Assembly (NCBI GenBank): GCA_027491395.1
Contig: JAOZFI010000054.1
Location: forward strand, 1-43,158
Direction: 5' to 3'
DNA length: 43,158 bases
Source of the DNA: Thermoproteota archaeon
Lineage (GTDB): Archaea; Korarchaeota; Korarchaeia; Korarchaeales; Korarchaeaceae
Positions 18,663 through 25,600 of this stretch are shown piece after piece. The stretch's first letter is position 1. Every line of letters starts with the position of its first letter. Under the pieces are notes generated by a model, which did not search any database, was not told the origin of the DNA, and worked only from the letters and a program-made list of their open reading frames with translations. Made by a program: the position numbers and the translations under genes.

Positions 18663-18920
18663 GTGGGCTTGATGGGGGTAAGCAAGGTCAGCAGAAAGGG
18701 GCTCACCAACATACCCTCGAAGGTGAGGAGGGAAGCTGGAATAGAGGAGGGAGATCTCATGGTATGGGAGGTGGAGGGTAGAGAGGTCATAAGAGTGCGA
18801 ATCGTGAAGGACCCGCTGAAGCACCTGAAGGGGAAGTACGATGATCCAGATCTAACCTACGACAGAGTCGAGGAGACTACTGATAGGCTCATTGAGAGGG
18901 AGATGGATGCCGGTAATTGA
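18663..18920 (+). CDS. AbrB/MazE-family antitoxin (VapB-type)
   Basis: SKVSRKGLTNIPSKVRREAGIEEGDLMVW matches the AbrB pattern. Overlaps a PIN gene. ATG 18672 is an alternative start. Confidence 0.9.
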   Translation: MGLMGVSKVSRKGLTNIPSKVRREAGIEEGDLMVWEVEGREVIRVRIVKDPLKHLKGKYDDPDLTYDRVEETTDRLIEREMDAGN

Positions 18921-19320
18921 GCTGGATATGCTGATCGCCTTGGTCAACAAATCGGACAAGCTGCACAAGGTGGCAAGCGGGCTGTTTCAGGCTATCACCT
19001 CGGGGAGGTTGAAGGAAATGAAGTTAGCTTCTTCTGCCCTTCTGGAGTACGAGCTGGTGCTGAGGTCCCGTGGATACAGTGAGAAAGACATTAGGGGAGA
19101 TATAGAAGCCTTCAAACTGATCCCTAACTTAAAGGAGGCCTTCCTAACATCCGAGGTGATCGTGAAGGCCTCCTCACTCAGAGAGAAGTATTCCCTCACC
19201 TACTTCGATTCCCTGCACTGTGCCACAGCCATGCTGTATGATGGTAAAATAGTGGCCTCTGATAACGCTTACGATAATGTTCCCGAAGTGAGAAGGTTGG
19301 ATCCTTCCTACCTAATCTGA
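18907..19320 (+). CDS. vapC: PIN-domain toxin (VapC)
   Basis: MPVIELDMLIA, LLEYE, LTYFDSLHCATA, IVASD. Start at ATG 18907. Confidence 0.9.
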   Translation: MPVIELDMLIALVNKSDKLHKVASGLFQAITSGRLKEMKLASSALLEYELVLRSRGYSEKDIRGDIEAFKLIPNLKEAFLTSEVIVKASSLREKYSLTYFDSLHCATAMLYDGKIVASDNAYDNVPEVRRLDPSYLI

Positions 19321-19576: not shown

Positions 19577-20239
19577 ATGGTAATAAGTAATATTTGGCTC
19601 GACAATCCAGTGCCAGATACCCGGAGGTTCAGGTCCGATCTGGAGGAGCTGGCTAGGAGGATAGAGAGGAGGGGGGGTCTACCGGCCGGCAGGCTGAGAC
19701 CCCTTATCGACAGGCTGACCGACCTCTACATAGCTGGGGCCGTGAAGATAAATCATTCGGCCATGGAGCTGGTGATAGCGGCTCACCTGATCATGAAGGG
19801 ATATCAGGTGGATGTAGAGGTTAAAGTGAACGACCTCAGATGCGACGTGATGGGCACGAATAAGGGAAAGGTGATAGTAGAGGTGGAGACAGGCTTCGTC
19901 CCTCCAGAACATGCCTTGGATCCCGACAGTTTTTGCAGGGCGAGGATAGCAAGCAAGATCGCTAGGTATAGCCAGTATGCAGATATATTCTATTTAGCGG
20001 CGCCCCCCACCTATCTGATGGAGATACCCCCTTTCCTCCTTACCCCTCCCCACGCTAGGTCCGAGATAGAGCTGAGGAAGTGGAAGGAATTGCTGGACAG
20101 GTACTATAGAAATCCGCCCATACCCATAGAGCTGCTGAGGAGGGCCAAGCTCAATGGGATTCTTGTGACTTACGTAGATGAAGGTAGAGTGATAGAGCTC
20201 AGCACCGAGGCCTATCTCAACCTATTTAAGTACATCTAG
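19577..20239 (+). CDS. Uncharacterised archaeal protein, possible PD-(D/E)XK nuclease-like fold
   Basis: KGYQVDVE...LRCDVMG...VIVEVETG resembles restriction-endonuclease-like motifs, with EVE in place of ExK. Start uncertain. Confidence 0.7.
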   Translation: MVISNIWLDNPVPDTRRFRSDLEELARRIERRGGLPAGRLRPLIDRLTDLYIAGAVKINHSAMELVIAAHLIMKGYQVDVEVKVNDLRCDVMGTNKGKVIVEVETGFVPPEHALDPDSFCRARIASKIARYSQYADIFYLAAPPTYLMEIPPFLLTPPHARSEIELRKWKELLDRYYRNPPIPIELLRRAKLNGILVTYVDEGRVIELSTEAYLNLFKYI

Positions 20240-20362: not shown

Positions 20363-20785
20363 CTACTTTATCACGGGGAATGTCTTTACCCCGACCTCTG
20401 AGGCCACATCTCTCAGTTTTTGATCGAATGTAGCGAGATCCGCTCCCCTCATGACGGCTAGAGCCAGATAAAGAGAATCGTATACCGTAATTTCATACCT
20501 CATCGCTATGCTCAGGGCCTCCATGATCAGCTCGCCTGCTGGATATACTTTCATTCTACTCAAGATGTTGAGCAGATCCTCAGCAGCCTTCCTGCACTCC
20601 TCTTCATCGAGCTCTCCCCGAACATTTCGCCTCCATATGGCATTGGCGGACTCTGGCAGTGCGAGGTCGAGGGTGCATACCCCTTCACCGCCTAATATCC
20701 AGCCCTTGATGGATCTCTCGGCCTCATCGGATCCCTCCTCATCCAGCACCAGCTTAACGAGGAAAGATGAATCCAAGACTTTCAT
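20363..20785 (-). CDS. vapC: PIN-domain toxin (VapC)
   Basis: VLDSSFLVK, ESANAIW, ITVYDSLYLALA, LATFD. Confidence 0.93.
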   Translation of the reverse strand: MKVLDSSFLVKLVLDEEGSDEAERSIKGWILGGEGVCTLDLALPESANAIWRRNVRGELDEEECRKAAEDLLNILSRMKVYPAGELIMEALSIAMRYEITVYDSLYLALAVMRGADLATFDQKLRDVASEVGVKTFPVIK

Positions 20786-21000
20786 CTGCTCTCCCTGTCC
20801 TCTCTGATGATTCGAGCTGAATCCGTCTTTATCTTCCTTTTTCGGGCCTCTTTCCTAGCTTTGTCTATTATCTCCAGTAATTCGTAGTCTCTAACCCTTT
20901 CTTCTATGTATTTCCTTATTTCTTTGCTCCAGTTGACTTTCAGCTTCTTCATTTTCTCTTTCAGCTCTCTCGGAACCCGGACTGTGACTACCGAACTCAT
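20782..21000 (-). CDS. Ribbon-helix-helix antitoxin (VapB-type)
   Basis: VVTVRVPRELKEKM...VNWSKEIRKYIEE, C-terminal IREDRESR. ATGA overlap with the PIN gene. Confidence 0.9.
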   Translation of the reverse strand: MSSVVTVRVPRELKEKMKKLKVNWSKEIRKYIEERVRDYELLEIIDKARKEARKRKIKTDSARIIREDRESR

Positions 21001-21004
21001 CGGT

Positions 21005-21041
21005 ATTACGTGATGAAATACGTTTTAAAGAATTGCGTAAT
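21005..21041 (-). promoter_or_regulatory. TATA box flanked by inverted repeat (probable antitoxin operator)
   Basis: Plus-strand ATTACG (21005-21010) and CGTAAT (21036-21041) bracket minus-strand TTTAAAA, about 25 nt before the ATG. Confidence 0.55.
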
Positions 21042-21112
21042 GACTAATTGGAATACTAACATTTGAGGTCACTGACTCGACAACGGCAAGGCACTGTGAG
21101 GTCCACAGTTAG

Positions 21113-21278
21113 AATAAACCCGAGAACTGCTTTCGGGGGGGATCCCCGACCTTCCGGCCGGGTTACCTCCGGTCGCCCCTCTCGAGGCGGCCGGAATTTC
21201 AGCGGTCAAGGCTAACCCCGACCGCCTACTCCTCCCCTTTCCCGGCAGAGGATACTTACCGGCAGTGACTAATAAACC
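21113..21278. repeat. 8-bp direct repeat AATAAACC flanking a 150-bp GC-rich segment
   Basis: AATAAACC at 21113-21120 and 21271-21278. Confidence 0.7.
21120..21246 (-). ncRNA. Unassigned structured RNA candidate (closing stem plus four-way junction)
   Basis: Five helices readable by eye. GNRA tetraloops GAGA and GGAA and five G-U pairs favour the minus strand. Upstream TTTATTA at 21276-21270. Confidence 0.65.
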
Positions 21279-21304
21279 TTCCGTATCATATTTTCACAAA
21301 TTTG

Positions 21305-21811
21305 TTAAAACTTTTTGATTAGGGATGGGAGGGAGGCCGTAGTGTATAGCTGATCCCTCCTGACGCCAATCCAGACCTCTATGGCCTCCTCCACGGCTTT
21401 CACGAGGCGAGGCGTGGGTCTGCCTAGCTTTATCCCTGGGCACCTCTGATCGACGTAAACGTAGAATTCGCCCAGTTTGTGGGAGTAGTAGGCCTCCTCA
21501 CCCCTTCCATACTCAGGATTCCTGTATATCTTGAAAGGCCATATTTTACAGGCGGAGGGCTTCATTCCCAAGCTTTGAAGGTAGCATAGACCCGCTTCAT
21601 TATCCTCGATGAGGAATGGGCAGGCCTCTCCTTCTCTCTTCCTTATGTACTGTTTCCCAGCAATCGACTCTATATACTGGGGACCGAAGGTGCGGGCTAC
21701 GGATATTGCTTCATGGGGCTTCAAGGGGATGCGGAAGCGGTAGCAACATAGGCCGCAGGCGTAACATGTGAAGTCGGAGACCCGGCTCCACGGTAGGTAC
21801 AGTTCGCCCAC
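21305..21811 (-). CDS. YkgJ-family CxxCxxCC cysteine-cluster protein
   Basis: CYACGLCC, ACPFL, GLC, KPSACKIWPF, RCPGI. Confidence 0.88.
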   Translation of the reverse strand: MGELYLPWSRVSDFTCYACGLCCYRFRIPLKPHEAISVARTFGPQYIESIAGKQYIRKREGEACPFLIEDNEAGLCYLQSLGMKPSACKIWPFKIYRNPEYGRGEEAYYSHKLGEFYVYVDQRCPGIKLGRPTPRLVKAVEEAIEVWIGVRRDQLYTTASLPSLIKKF

Positions 21812-21930: not shown

Positions 21931-22242
21931 TTGGGTTATGTGGTAATTATTGATGATCGTGGGAGGATGGTCTTACCCGTCGAGGCGAGGCGCAGACTGG
22001 GCATCAGGAAAGGGAGCAGAGTCCCCCTGAAAGTGACCAGCGATAACCCGGCTGGAACCATAGTTTTAGACAAGCTGTATGAGGAGGTCTCCAAGATCTT
22101 CGATGAGAAGTTCAAAGACTGGAAGGAAGAGGATCACGAGGCCTCCAAGATGCTGGAGATTATTCTAGGTGGAGATCATCGACCCAGTTTACCTCGTTGC
22201 CTACCTTCGACCCTCCGATCCGCTTCACCCTCATTCCATTGA
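21931..22242 (+). CDS. AbrB/MazE-family antitoxin
   Basis: VIIDDRGRMVLPVEARRRLGIRKG, with GGTGAG before the TTG start. Its tail runs 74 nt into the toxin frame. Confidence 0.8.
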   Translation: MGYVVIIDDRGRMVLPVEARRRLGIRKGSRVPLKVTSDNPAGTIVLDKLYEEVSKIFDEKFKDWKEEDHEASKMLEIILGGDHRPSLPRCLPSTLRSASPSFH

Positions 22243-22572
22243 GATAATATAGGAACTCGGTGAGGACAGGAAGGTCTCTCAGGCTTCTCTCTTGGAGCTA
22301 GATTTGCTCATGAAGAGCAGGGGTTTTACATGGATCAGAGGATCAAGATGTGGCACCTGTTGAATGGTGTTATAGACGGATCTCTCGAGCCTCTCTCCCT
22401 CAGATATTGCGTTGGGGCGTTCCTCTCATCCAAGGGACTTGACTACTTCGACTCCCTCATAGCCGCCCAATGCCTAGTTAGGGGGAAGCTCGTCACAACA
22501 GATCAGGAGATCATCGAGGTTGTCATGAGGAGCGAGGAATTGCTAGGCGAGTCTGAGGAGTTATCTCGCTGA
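22169..22572 (+). pseudogene. Disrupted PIN/VapC toxin
   Basis: GTG 22169 gives MEIIDPVYLVAYLRPSDPLH..., then an in-frame TAG at 22250-22252, then SQASLLELDLLMKSRGF, a frameshift near 22325-22330, and GLDYFDSLIAA...LVTTD. Confidence 0.85.
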
Positions 22573-22687: not shown

Positions 22688-25600
22688 TCAAGGGGGGATC
22701 CTCCTCAGCAGTCCCATGGAGCGATATCCCCTAGCGTACGAGGACATCGGTTTGACCTCTACCTCCTCCAAGCTCACTGAATTGAAGGCTCTGGCCAACT
22801 CTAAGGCTAGATCGGCGTTCAAGACTAGAGGGGTATTCAGGTCGGCCGCCAACCTCCTCACCGCGTAGTCAACCTGAGGAGCGTACCCGGTAGCGATGAC
22901 CATGTCAGCTCTCCCCTCTTTCAGCAGTTCCATCGCCTCCTCCTCGCCAACTTCCGACACCCACCAGACGTCCAGCGTGGATGCCAGAGCATCCGCAGCC
23001 GCCTCCATCTTCCCGCGCTCCTCTCCGAAGCCTTCGTATCCCACTACCACCCCCCTCTCTGGCAATCTGTTCGGGCTCACAGCCAGCCAAGACTTAAGGA
23101 GAGCAGCCTCGTAAGCCCTGTCCATTGAAGCGACTTCCCCCGTTGACCTCATTTCAACCCCCAGAAAGGGATAGGCCCCTCTCAGCTGTGACCACGAGAA
23201 CTGCGGTGACTTAACCGCGTAGTGTCGCATCACGGGCTCGTAGAATTCATCAACCCCCAGAAATCCCTCAAATACTACTTTTGCAGCTGCTCTGGCTAGG
23301 TTGACGCCCGAGGCCTTGCTGGAGAAGGGCATTGACCTAGAGGCCCTCAGGTTCAGCTCCAGTACGTAAACACCGCTACCGTTTATCACGAACTGTAGGT
23401 TAAAGGGTCCCCTTATCTGGAGGGCCCTTACTAGTTTCAAGGTAGCCTCCTTCATTTCGCTCACTGGCAGACCGCGGACCGGCAGTATCATGGTGGAATC
23501 GCCAGAATGAATACCAGCAGGCCCGATATGCCTTATCACCACCCCAACCACGCTCTCTCCGTCGGCAACACCATCTATCTCGGTCTCTGGTCCTCTCAAG
23601 AACTTCGACACCACCACACTCCTTCCAGTGGAGAGGGCTGAGCGAACCGCCCGCATCAAGGACCCTTCGTCCCAAGCTAGTGACATGGAGGTGCCACTCA
23701 GGACGTGTGACGGCCTCACCATCACCGGGTAGCCGTGCTCCATCGCGAAATCCAGCGCCTCCTCCACCGAGTTCACCTCCTTCCATGGAGGCTGCTTCAA
23801 TTCGAGCTCATCCAAGAGTTGGGAGAACCTGTCCCTGCTCTCGGCCACCTCCACACTACTCCCGCTCGTCCCCAGCACCTCGACCCCTCTGGATTCTAGG
23901 GGCTCGGCCAAGTCATTGGCCACCTGCCCTCCGAGGAAGGTGACGACCTTGATGGTAGACTCGAACTCGTATATGTCGAGCAGCCTCTCTAGGGTGAGCT
24001 CCTCGAAGTAGAGCCTGTCCACCACATCCCAGTCCGTGGATACCGTCTCCGGGTTGTAGTTCACTATTGTTACGGTGTCTACGTACTCCTTCGCGGCTCT
24101 GGCGAACTCCATCACACCCCAGTCGAACTCCACTGAGACACCTATCCTGAAGACCCCTGCCCCTATCACCAGCACATCAGCTCTGGCCCTCACGTCGTGG
24201 GTCTGACCCCCGTAAGTGGCATACAGGTAGTAGGTGATGGAGGGCCACTCGGCTGCCAGCGTATCTATCTGCTTGAATACTGGAGATATTCCCAGCGACT
24301 TCCTGAGTCTCCTGACCTGATCCTCGCTCATCCCCAGCCTCCCAGCTATCTAAGCGTCGGAGAATCCGTACCTCTTCGCCGCATACAGAGAAGAAGGGCT
24401 CGGATCAAGCGTGGAGTAGGTCTTGACGGCCTTCTCCAACTCCTTGATGAACCATACATCCACGCCACTAGCCTCGGCTACCTCCTCAGCACTCGCTCCT
24501 CCAGCTAGAGCTATCGAGGCCCATGCCGGCCAGTAGGGCCTCCTCCCTCTTAAGGCCTCCAAGGCGTACGAGGGATCCCCTTCCATTGGCAGCCCGTCGA
24601 ACCCCCCTAACATCCTCAGGCCCTTCTGCATAGCCTCCGCTAAGTTCCTGCCTACAGCCATGACTTCTCCTATGCTCTTCATCTCGCTCCCTATGCTCTC
24701 CTCCACCCCCTCGAACTTCTCCAGATCCCATCTCGGGATCTTCACGACCACGTAGTCGAGGCTGGGTTCGAAGCAGGAGCAAGTTACCCCGGTCACCCTG
24801 TTCAGTACCTCATCGAGCCTGTAGCCCAGAGCCAGCTTGGCCGCCACGTAGGCTAGTGGGTAACCCGTGGCCTTGCTAGCCAAGGCTGAAGATCTGGACA
24901 TCCTCGGGTTCATCTCTATGGCGTAGTACCCGTCTCCCAACGCGAATTGAACGTTACCCTCGCCCACCAACCCCACGGCCTCAGTGACCCTCAGGGATGC
25001 GCTCCTCAGCATCTGATACTCCTGGTTGGTGAGGGTCTGGCAGAGCGCCACCACGACGGATTCGCCGGTGTGCACGCCCATTGGGTCAGCATTCTCCAAG
25101 CAGGCTGGAGCGATCACATTCCCGTAAGCATCCCTCACCACCTCGAACTCTATCTCCTTCCATCCTCCTAGGTACTTCTCCACGAGGGCGCTCCCTATAG
25201 AGCTCGCCTTCAAAGCCCTCAGGATGAGAGCCCTCATCTCCTCCCTGCTCCAAGCTATGAAGGAACCCCTCCCGCCCAAGTTGTAGGAGACCCTCACCAT
25301 CACCGGGTAGCCTATCGAGTCTGCCGCCTCCACCGCCTCCTCCACCGATGAGACATGCCTGCTAGGGGGCATGGGCACCCCGTTCCTCTCCAGAGCCTCC
25401 TTGAACTTCTCCCTGTTCAATGCCCTGTCTATGGCCTCGGGCTGGGTCCCGAGTACCCTCACTTCTTACCTGTCCAAGGCGCCGGAGCGCCACAGCCTGA
25501 CCCCGGCATCCAAGGCTGTCTGGCCACCGAACCCGAGCATTATCCCGTCGGGTCTCTCCGCCTCTATGACCCTCTCCAAGAACTCCTCCCTTATGGGGAG

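Follow-up and report, generated by a model that had tools for sequence, protein, structure and literature searches.

The stretch of DNA analysed here (hereafter the window) is the 43,158-nt contig JAOZFI010000054.1 of the assembly GCA_027491395.1, from a Thermoproteota archaeon of the family Korarchaeaceae. On the minus strand of the window, a YkgJ-like gene is followed by a structured RNA element, which in turn precedes a VapBC toxin-antitoxin pair and a convergent gene for a 220-aa protein. The element stands out as a G+C island, with 63-68% G+C compared with 39% in the flanks and 53.2% in the whole genome. A preliminary description of the locus had drawn at this site, between the YkgJ-like gene and the VapBC pair, a linear RNA of ~127 nt with five helices (P1-P5) and its own TATA box. 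Four of these helices, namely P2 (GGGGAGGA/UCCCCCCC, 21237-30/21142-35), P3 (21225-21202), P4 (21195-21168) and P5 (21162-21145), are present where they had been drawn, and so are the purine-rich linkers GUAG, UGAAAU and GGUAA on the minus strand and the two GNRA loops, GAGA in P4 and GGAA in P5. The conserved fold consists of the following parts.

21230-21237, minus strand: 5' strand of the stalk P2, GGGGAGGA, whose first five bases form an inner helix (h') in the precursor fold described below.
21135-21142, minus strand: 3' strand of P2, UCCCCCCC; in the precursor fold, 21142-21138 belong to h' and 21137-21134 (CCCG) to a central helix (H).
21201-21226, minus strand: hairpin P3, 11 bp with a UUAG loop; 100% of its alignment cells are paired and four pairs have changed on both sides.
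21168-21195, minus strand: hairpin P4 with a GAGA (GNRA) loop; three pairs have changed on both sides.
21145-21162, minus strand: hairpin P5 with a GGAA loop; two pairs have changed on both sides.

The minus strand from 21120 to 21246 folds in RNAfold with a minimum free energy (MFE) of -70.8 kcal/mol, and the MFE structure is identical to the five helices originally drawn. Dinucleotide shuffles of this strand have a mean of -56.2 kcal/mol (standard deviation 4.05; z -3.60), and none of 200 shuffles folds as well. The plus strand of the same interval folds more weakly (-57.9 kcal/mol, z -1.91), and 3 of 200 shuffles are as good.

The element does not belong to a known RNA class. Rfam 15 yields no match at gathering scores over the whole window, in a search of the linear sequence that did not extend to circular permutations. 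At E values of up to 10, the region 20950-21400 gives only four weak matches (E 4-6.7), the best with 15.9 bits against a gathering score of 45, and eight homologues searched in the same way give one weak match. ARAGORN identifies no tRNA gene in the window, and the loops of the element are all 3-5 nt long, with no 7-nt anticodon or T loop, which rejects identity with a tRNA. Ordinary genes for RNase P RNA (175.6 bits), signal recognition particle (SRP) RNA (155.6 bits) and 5S rRNA (83.8 bits) are located on other contigs of the genome, and the element is therefore not a copy of any of these three. The Rfam comparison proposed in the preliminary description and the tRNA search thus both agree with its failure to match the RNA to tRNA, other common non-coding RNAs or known riboswitches. 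Searches of the accessible literature found no paper on such an RNA in Korarchaeia. To our knowledge, few non-coding RNAs have been reported from this class.

The RNA had been regarded as an orphan, a claim that does not hold, given that relatives occur in 16 other genomes of the genus. A BLAST search shows the element to be single copy in its own genome and, among 61 related genomes, to be present in eight others, all from the same genus. The covariance model R1, built from the nine form-A sequences (the form found in the window), is positive in 9 of 36 genomes of the family, which are the same nine genomes of one genus. A second model, R2, describes form B and is positive in 8 of 40 genomes of the class, again from this genus and never in a genome with form A. 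The RNA is thus present in 17 of the 21 genomes of the genus, nine with form A and eight with form B, at the same locus. The two forms share the promoter, its distance from the RNA and the stalk and differ in their three hairpins; R1 nonetheless scores seven of the eight form-B copies with 10-19.5 bits at the right place. In seven form-B genomes, the RNA is flanked by the YkgJ-like gene and the convergent gene, which encodes ~210 residues there. The eighth copy, in genome G007, is located behind the YkgJ-like gene on a contig different from that of the convergent gene (C96:996-1102 and C91:4197-4814, respectively), a split caused by rearrangement or, in this 63%-complete genome, by a break in the assembly. 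An additional form-A variant from a metagenome contig (L162) brings the set to 18 sequences.

No further relatives emerged from the searches beyond the genus. R1 and R2 find nothing in 19 genomes from six other genera of the class, in a procedure that scores ~91-96 first-look candidates per genome and can miss weak relatives. Neither the promoter nor the stalk motif is found downstream of the YkgJ-like gene at 13 loci of other genera or in G003. BLAST detects no paralogue in this genome, and a strict regular expression for the stalk matches 15 genomic sites, among which the element is the sole RNA of this type. R2 also gives a weak match in G016 (E 0.02), which was rejected as coding-like. The search of related genomes suggested at the outset has thus recovered homologues at one and the same locus, and the element is a previously undescribed structured RNA gene that is restricted to one korarchaeal genus from hot springs.

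The homologues carry the compensatory changes whose absence would have counted against the RNA. RNAalifold predicts P2 to P5, without P1, from a MAFFT alignment of the nine form-A sequences, and 10 of 32 pairs have changed on both sides. When P2 to P5 are fixed, 92.6% of the alignment cells are paired, compared with 37.7-61.3% when the partners are slid against each other. The count of ten pairs changed on both sides is reached in 3 of 500 shuffles, whereas neither the 20 cells changed on both sides nor the covariation score of 0.361 (shuffle mean 0.252) is reached in any of 500. The P4 loop remains GNRA (GAGA, GGGA or GAAA) while its letters vary. When the first three pairs of the stalk are fixed, 17 of the 18 sequences fold into a stalk with three hairpins, the copy in G005 being degenerate. 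Between forms A and B, neither the sequences nor the lengths of the hairpins agree, and thus it is the architecture rather than the letters that is conserved. Joint alignments of the two forms (model-fitted A6 and MAFFT A7) are poor in the hairpins, and the modules were therefore analysed by script. An RNAalifold consensus for form B that pairs AGAGG with CCUCU was discarded because G016 and G007 break this pairing yet keep P3.

The gene is bounded by an archaeal promoter, in which a purine run resembles a transcription factor B recognition element (BRE), and by a T-rich run.

21270-21283, minus strand: promoter, comprising the BRE-like purine run (21283-21277) and the TATA box TTTATTA (21276-21270); AAGGTTTATTAG is invariant in the nine form-A sequences.
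21246-21249, minus strand: predicted transcription start zone; G21246 is position 30 counted from the first T of the TATA box.
21111-21118, minus strand: T-rich run TTTATTCT, which by its sequence is a likely archaeal termination signal.

The TATA box and purine run had been noted in the preliminary description, and both are conserved across the relatives. In form B, the promoter reads GGAAAG-(T/C)TTATTA, and in all relatives the distance from the promoter to the RNA core is fixed at 32-35 nt. The promoter is of the same type as the tRNA promoters of this genome. Here, the genes for SRP RNA, RNase P RNA and tRNAs start 30-31 nt past the first T of their TATA boxes, and some of them are preceded by GGG at positions 27-29. 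A run of four or five T residues directly follows the outer helix of the stalk (see below) in most form-A relatives. An invariant promoter at a fixed distance from the core fits a stand-alone gene, as originally claimed; the linear RNA of ~127 nt that went with this claim is probably a precursor and not the final product. Together with the covariation, we hold it to be very probable that the element is a conserved stand-alone structured RNA gene. A scan for bacterial promoters and terminators gave no sites and is irrelevant to archaea. The only other close match to the promoter word AAGTTTTATTAG in the genome is found at G000:C6:9543-9554 (minus strand; G000 is the genome of the window), where a G+C-rich stretch with a possible hairpin follows and may be another small RNA gene.

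What is the function of the stalk on which the three hairpins sit? The stalk contains the only letters that are invariant in both forms, namely G-Y-C-G-G-G-A-N-A-G-G-G on the 5' side and C-C-C-(C)-G-A-A-A-R-Y on the 3' side. Together with the adjoining leader and trailer, these letters can be arranged as a strict 3-4-3 bulge-helix-bulge (BHB) motif, with an outer helix h, two bulges B1 and B2 on either side of a central helix H, and an inner helix h'. Such an hBHBh' motif is described in the accessible text of three reports as the motif recognised by archaeal splicing endonucleases (PMC6379350, PMC4090602, PMC3239211). Its parts in the window are as follows.

21245-21248, minus strand: 5' strand of the outer helix h, CUGC, pairing with 21130-21127.
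21127-21130, minus strand: 3' strand of h, GCAG.
21241-21244, minus strand: 5' strand of the central helix H (4 bp), CGGG, pairing with 21137-21134; invariant in 18 of 18 sequences.
21238-21240, minus strand: bulge B1 (AAA), with a predicted cut at 21239/21238; A-N-A in 18 of 18 sequences, the middle base being A, G or U.
21131-21133, minus strand: bulge B2 (AAA), with a predicted cut at 21132/21131; AAA in 18 of 18 sequences.
21132-21238, minus strand: predicted excised and circularised RNA of 107 nt with four hairpin arms.

A scanner restricted to Watson-Crick pairs detects the strict 3-4-3 motif in all 18 sequences. In each of them, the CGGG/CCCG helix has exactly 4 bp, all Watson-Crick, between two bulges that are located on opposite strands, and its CCCG strand consists of the last three residues of a C-run and the following G. 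The inner helix is GGGGA/UCCCC in this genome and GGGG(A)/(U)CCCC in general. The outer helix varies, being CUGC/GCAG here, UUGC/GCAA or UUGC/GCGA in close relatives, GU/AU or GU/AC in three genomes and GGGGC/GCCCC in form B, and the pair of this helix that adjoins H is C:G in some relatives and U:A in others. The outer helix measures 2-6 bp and the inner helix 4-5 bp in form A, 2-3 bp in seven of the eight form-B sequences and 1 bp in G005; the threshold of 2 bp for a flanking helix was set as in this genome's own tRNA introns. The two flanking helices add up to 9 bp in this genome and to at least 6 bp in all 18 sequences. No alternative with a continuous helix exists at the stalk. The BHB fold is the unconstrained MFE structure in seven of nine form-A precursors once a few flanking bases are added, and it is ~3 kcal/mol better than a fold with an internal loop in 9 of 10 form-A sequences, both at 37°C and at 75°C.

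The machinery that acts on such motifs is encoded in the genome. The cut rule that we used places each bulge 3' of its helix strand and the cut past the second bulge base, in line with the polarity and cut positions given for pre-tRNA in the accessible part of PMC4090602. With this rule and polarity, the scanner also picks out the two genuine tRNA introns of the genome: at C45:40099-40201 its intron is the one called by ARAGORN (position 39, 15 nt), and at C26:131648-131759 it gives an intron of 34 nt. In both introns, the inner helix measures 2 bp and B2 is AAA. A further ARAGORN call, a tRNA-Gln with an 802-nt intron at G000:C26:35180-36076, is coding-like and almost certainly false. The splicing endonuclease is represented by a single 366-aa frame, covering G000:C37:52654-53481, in which PF01974 matches twice (76.8 and 42 bits), giving two catalytic-type domains, and the ligase RtcB by a PF01139 match of 597.5 bits. 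According to the accessible text of PMC3239211, the α2 endonuclease requires the strict 3-4-3 motif, and Korarchaeum cryptofilum has been reported with the α2 type; as far as its sequence tells, the two-domain endonuclease of this genome is of that same type.

We propose that the RNA is excised and circularised by the tRNA-splicing machinery, which we consider the most likely route of maturation, with a probability of roughly 0.5. From transcription through cleavage and circularisation to the role of the circle, this pathway is inferred, and its steps would be as follows. The BRE/TATA promoter would drive a precursor of ~125-135 nt (gene span 21111-21283, minus strand), in which the hairpins P3, P4 and P5 and the stalk P2 would meet at a four-way junction while pairing of leader and trailer to the stalk base would create the strict BHB motif. 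The splicing endonuclease would then cut past the second base of each bulge (21239/21238 and 21132/21131), and RtcB would join the released ends. Subsequently, the C-run would slide by 3 nt to pair with the whole of GGGGAGGA, and the joint, ...CCCCCCCGAA^AGGGG... (that is, ...CCCCCCCGAA followed by AGGGGAGG..., with C-G-A-A-A-G across the junction), would form a GAAA tetraloop on P2. The predicted mature circle would have four arms, each closed by a tetraloop. Form A is predicted to release a piece of 105-114 nt in this way and form B one of 72-78 nt. All 18 sequences would regain the GAAA loop at the predicted joint, and folding in circular mode gives the GAAA-capped P2 as the MFE structure in 17 of them. 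The shift in register by 3 nt between the two folds is permitted by a GGN-GGN repeat on the 5' strand.

This two-fold model explains features that no single fold does. The letters of the stalk would never vary because each of them takes part in two pairings, and the middle bulge base would be free to vary because it is removed. The model likewise accounts for the GGN-GGN repeat, for the A.C mismatch tolerated in P2 and for the changes in G009, where A14 and A17 are both replaced by U alongside U116 to A. As for the nature of the product, we suggest, at odds somewhat short of even, that it is a closed four-armed circular RNA of its own kind, neither a permuted housekeeping RNA nor an rRNA intermediate nor an intron, whose two folds are switched by the 3-nt register shift. 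Our best guess for the role of the circle is that of a heat-stable, exonuclease-proof four-way-junction scaffold for protein binding.

Several points weigh against this proposal. Seven of the eight form-B sequences, with their inner helices of 2-3 bp, prefer the internal-loop fold by 1-4 kcal/mol. Loosely defined BHB motifs, in which G-U pairs and 2-bp helices are allowed, are common and occur in 679 of 4000 random 140-nt genomic windows, 973 of 4000 shuffles and 15 of 45 known RNA genes. The strict motif (Watson-Crick pairs only, h and h' together at least 6 bp) is found in 5 of 4000 genomic windows, 10 of 4000 shuffles and 1 of 45 known RNA genes, although the motif was spotted once other readings had been tried and these chance figures are therefore post hoc. 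Slippage between a G-run and a C-run can yield a BHB motif, as it does at P1 of this genome's RNase P RNA (G000:C26:6646-6932, L032); there, the 3-4-3 arrangement with an outer helix of 5 bp and an inner helix of 2 bp was rejected, because a continuous helix of 14 positions with one A.A mismatch is clearly better. The bases of the stalk never vary, so neither of its folds is testable by covariation, and the coupled change in G009 is a single event. A start at G21246 would leave an outer helix of just 2 bp. Lastly, form B alone covaries weakly (85.6% of cells paired, a level reached by 36 of 500 shuffles), in part because the alignment of its P4 is not structural.

The principal alternative, which we regard as distinctly less likely, is a linear stable RNA in which the stalk is a kink-turn (K-turn)-like internal loop bound by an L7Ae-family protein in a small ribonucleoprotein. 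In this arrangement, P1 would serve as the C helix, closed by C:G, and would be followed by the 3-nt bulge CGG and then by G.A, A.A, R.A and A.G into P2. The accessible text of PMC6298567 defines a K-turn by a 3-nt bulge, a helix that is usually closed by C:G, and tandem G:A and A:G pairs, and it names C/D and H/ACA guides, RNase P RNA and the l7ae leader among the RNAs bound in this way by L7Ae. The outline is recognizable in the element, with a 3-nt bulge past a C:G pair and then G opposite A; the CGG bulge follows C:G in 15 sequences and U:A in three. Moreover, the internal-loop fold is the MFE structure in six of eight form-B sequences, the lengths of the G-run and C-run shift in step (4 G/7 C, 3 G/6 C, and 4 G/4 C in G005), and 20 of the 21 genomes of the genus encode L7Ae as well as another protein of its family. 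All 18 sequences, however, would place A.A where the second sheared pair (2b.2n) of a K-turn is A.G. Natural K-turns with A.A at this position exist but are rare. In addition, the element differs from the K-turn RNAs in having neither C/D or ACA boxes nor guide pockets, and no L7Ae paralogue is specific to the genomes with the RNA. A K-turn also leaves unexplained the invariance of CGG, the exact complementarity of CGGG and CCCG and the A.C mismatch kept in P2, for which the BHB-based maturation offers an explanation.

Could the RNA instead remain unprocessed, as the linear five-helix structure that was first drawn? Its closing helix P1 (CCGGGAA/UUCUCGG, 21245-39/21126-20) is a genuine complementarity in this genome, the five-helix fold is the MFE structure of 21120-21246, and in most form-A sequences the GGGAA(A) stretch can pair with a pyrimidine-rich tail. 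P1 is not conserved among the relatives, however, and is missing from the alifold consensus; its complement is absent from four of the eight form-B sequences, its 3' partner coincides with the T-rich putative termination run, and a few added flanking bases switch the MFE structure to the other fold of the stalk in seven of nine cases. We consider an unprocessed five-helix RNA improbable.

About as improbable is the notion of an orphan or selfish intron-like element, that is, a BHB-bounded RNA that would persist through its excision and stability and serve no cellular function. Its occurrence in a single genus, its loss from 4 of 21 genomes and its fast-evolving hairpins would suit such an element, but it is single copy at one fixed locus, has a strong invariant promoter of its own and is bordered by flanks without exons of any gene. 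A viral or mobile origin was also rejected, given that 84 + 46 pattern matches in viral contigs (130 in all) include no model match better than E 0.7 and are attributable to chance.

A cis-acting element is more doubtful still. The RNA could in principle be a 3' untranslated region or terminator of the YkgJ-like gene, a vapBC leader, or an antisense element or insulator against the convergent 220-aa gene, since it always follows the YkgJ-like gene and lies, in 16 of 17 genomes, a few tens of bases from the convergent stop codon. Against these roles, the RNA has its own invariant promoter past the YkgJ stop codon, the VapBC pair is found in only four genomes and has its own TATA box, no same-strand gene follows the RNA in five form-A genomes and in all form-B genomes, and in G007 the RNA and the convergent gene are on different contigs. 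The least probable reading is a self-cleaving ribozyme, for which a twister-sister-like layout alone (P1, a conserved internal loop, P2 and a four-way junction) speaks. No ribozyme family matches even at E values of up to 10, and conservation between forms A and B is lacking in those hairpin loops on which tertiary contacts would depend.

The proposed circular RNA can be compared with several known archaeal systems, as far as the accessible text of the respective reports describes them. The closest is the permuted circular SRP RNA of Thermoproteus tenax (PMC4731332, Plagens et al. 2015), likewise a stand-alone gene with its own TATA box and a BHB motif formed by leader and trailer; the splicing endonuclease cuts this RNA, and the ends are joined to a stable circle with a hairpin loop restored at the joint. 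The T. tenax RNA is a rearranged universal RNA with known function and partners, whereas the korarchaeal RNA is unpermuted, matches no family and coexists with a normal SRP RNA gene, and cleavage and circles have been shown for the former and are only predicted for the latter. Archaeal pre-16S and pre-23S rRNA stems and tRNA introns (PMC6379350, PMC4090602, PMC3239211) share with the element the strict 3-4-3 motif, the same strand polarity and the expectation of a circular excised part, and the bulges of the element are A-rich, as in the two tRNA introns of this genome. The rRNA circle, however, is an intermediate of a known RNA, and tRNA splicing yields joined exons as its product and a disposable intron as the piece cut out; in the korarchaeal element, it is the predicted excised part that is conserved and structured, and the flanks are short and poorly conserved. 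The element also resembles the Sulfolobus circular non-coding RNAs without assigned function (PMC3326292, Danan et al. 2012) in being small, by prediction circular and from a hyperthermophilic setting in which stabilisation by circularity has been proposed, and circular fragments of RNase P RNA have been reported in the same work. Those circles were found by sequencing and bear no relation in sequence or structure to the korarchaeal RNA, and the accessible part of that report does not mention BHB motifs.

If the proposal is correct, archaeal tRNA-splicing enzymes would manufacture a stand-alone circular RNA from an unpermuted gene, and the uses of the splicing machinery would extend past tRNA, rRNA and permuted SRP RNA. 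The RNA would also be a compact natural case of a conformational switch from precursor to product. The analysis further offers a search rule, namely to look behind tRNA-type promoters for a variable structured core that is enclosed by an invariant 3-4-3 stalk. Comparable genes that escape covariance models of linear RNAs could be found in this way in other archaea. Without circularisation, the element would still represent a new family of conserved structured RNA.

The genes that surround the RNA are the following.

21305-21811, minus strand: YkgJ-like CxxCxxCC protein of 168 aa, upstream of the RNA (Pfam PF03692, E 1e-5).
20363-21000, minus strand: inserted pair of a VapB-like gene (20782-21000) and a PIN/VapC gene (20363-20785; PIN PF01850, E 2.8e-13).
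19577-20239, plus strand: convergent gene for a 220-aa protein with a PD-(D/E)xK-like fold and no Pfam family, adjoining the RNA in 16 of 17 genomes.

The position between a YkgJ gene and a VapBC module given in the preliminary description is thus accurate for the window and general only in its first half. All 17 RNA-bearing genomes have the YkgJ-like gene upstream of the RNA in the same orientation, whereas a VapBC pair separates the RNA from the 220-aa gene in only four of the nine form-A genomes (G000, G010, G002 and G012; the window and loci L003, L004 and L005) and is therefore a later insertion and not a partner. The pair has its own TATA box, TTTAAAA at 21029-21023, located 23-29 nt ahead of the vapB ATG at 21000, as the earlier account had also held.

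The convergent 220-aa protein has no sequence match in Pfam, NCBIfam or the PDB and appears to belong to an uncharacterised family. This large archaeal family comprises 2988 proteins at E values of up to 0.001 (~50% identity in Bathyarchaeia and Nitrososphaerota), and 552 of its loci in species genomes are confirmed; its invariant motifs are VKINHS, CD, VE(V/I)ETG..PP and AR..SK..RY. The structural model of the protein is confident (predicted local distance difference test, pLDDT, 90.9), and residues ~57-210 resemble PD-(D/E)xK nucleases, including 3dnx (Z 8.5), XisH 2okf (Z 7.7), AF1548 (Z 7.0), NucS, HindIII and Can2, with Foldseek E values of just ~1e-3. All 17 RNA-bearing genomes carry the gene intact. 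In the four genomes of the genus that lack the RNA, the gene is unmatched in G003, G011 and G019 and broken in G008. This co-occurrence suggests a link between the RNA and the protein, although the adjacency of the two genes and the kinship of the genomes keep it short of evidence. As a bolder extension of the scaffold idea, the closed four-way junction might be a ligand or decoy of this PD-(D/E)xK-like protein. The RNA motif was found near 9 of 80 genomic loci of the protein family (plus one chance match) and near 6 of 82 in a second set, in Korarchaeia only, and adjacency to a YkgJ-like gene at 16 of 160 loci, all korarchaeal. Beyond the genus, the protein occurs with neither of the two. At the G008 locus (L061, G008:C128, 2105-2250), a gap of 84 nt without the RNA separates the YkgJ-like gene from the 210-aa gene, which is split into two pieces with two TAG codons inside the match.

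The region around the RNA collects toxin-antitoxin modules. The VapBC pair is a recent insertion, and it is already decaying in G002, whose PIN frame has broken up into two open reading frames (ORFs) of 64 and 70 aa. In the window, a further PIN gene is located at 18892-19320 (plus strand), and the interval 21931-22572 (plus strand) contains two successive ORFs, the first MazE/AbrB-like with a score that narrowly misses the Pfam cut-off and the second of 80 aa without any match in Pfam. Beyond these, the large chain of carbamoyl-phosphate synthase at 22688-24331 (minus strand) and an upstream ORF form two adjacent ORFs of 370 and 547 aa that may represent a split gene.

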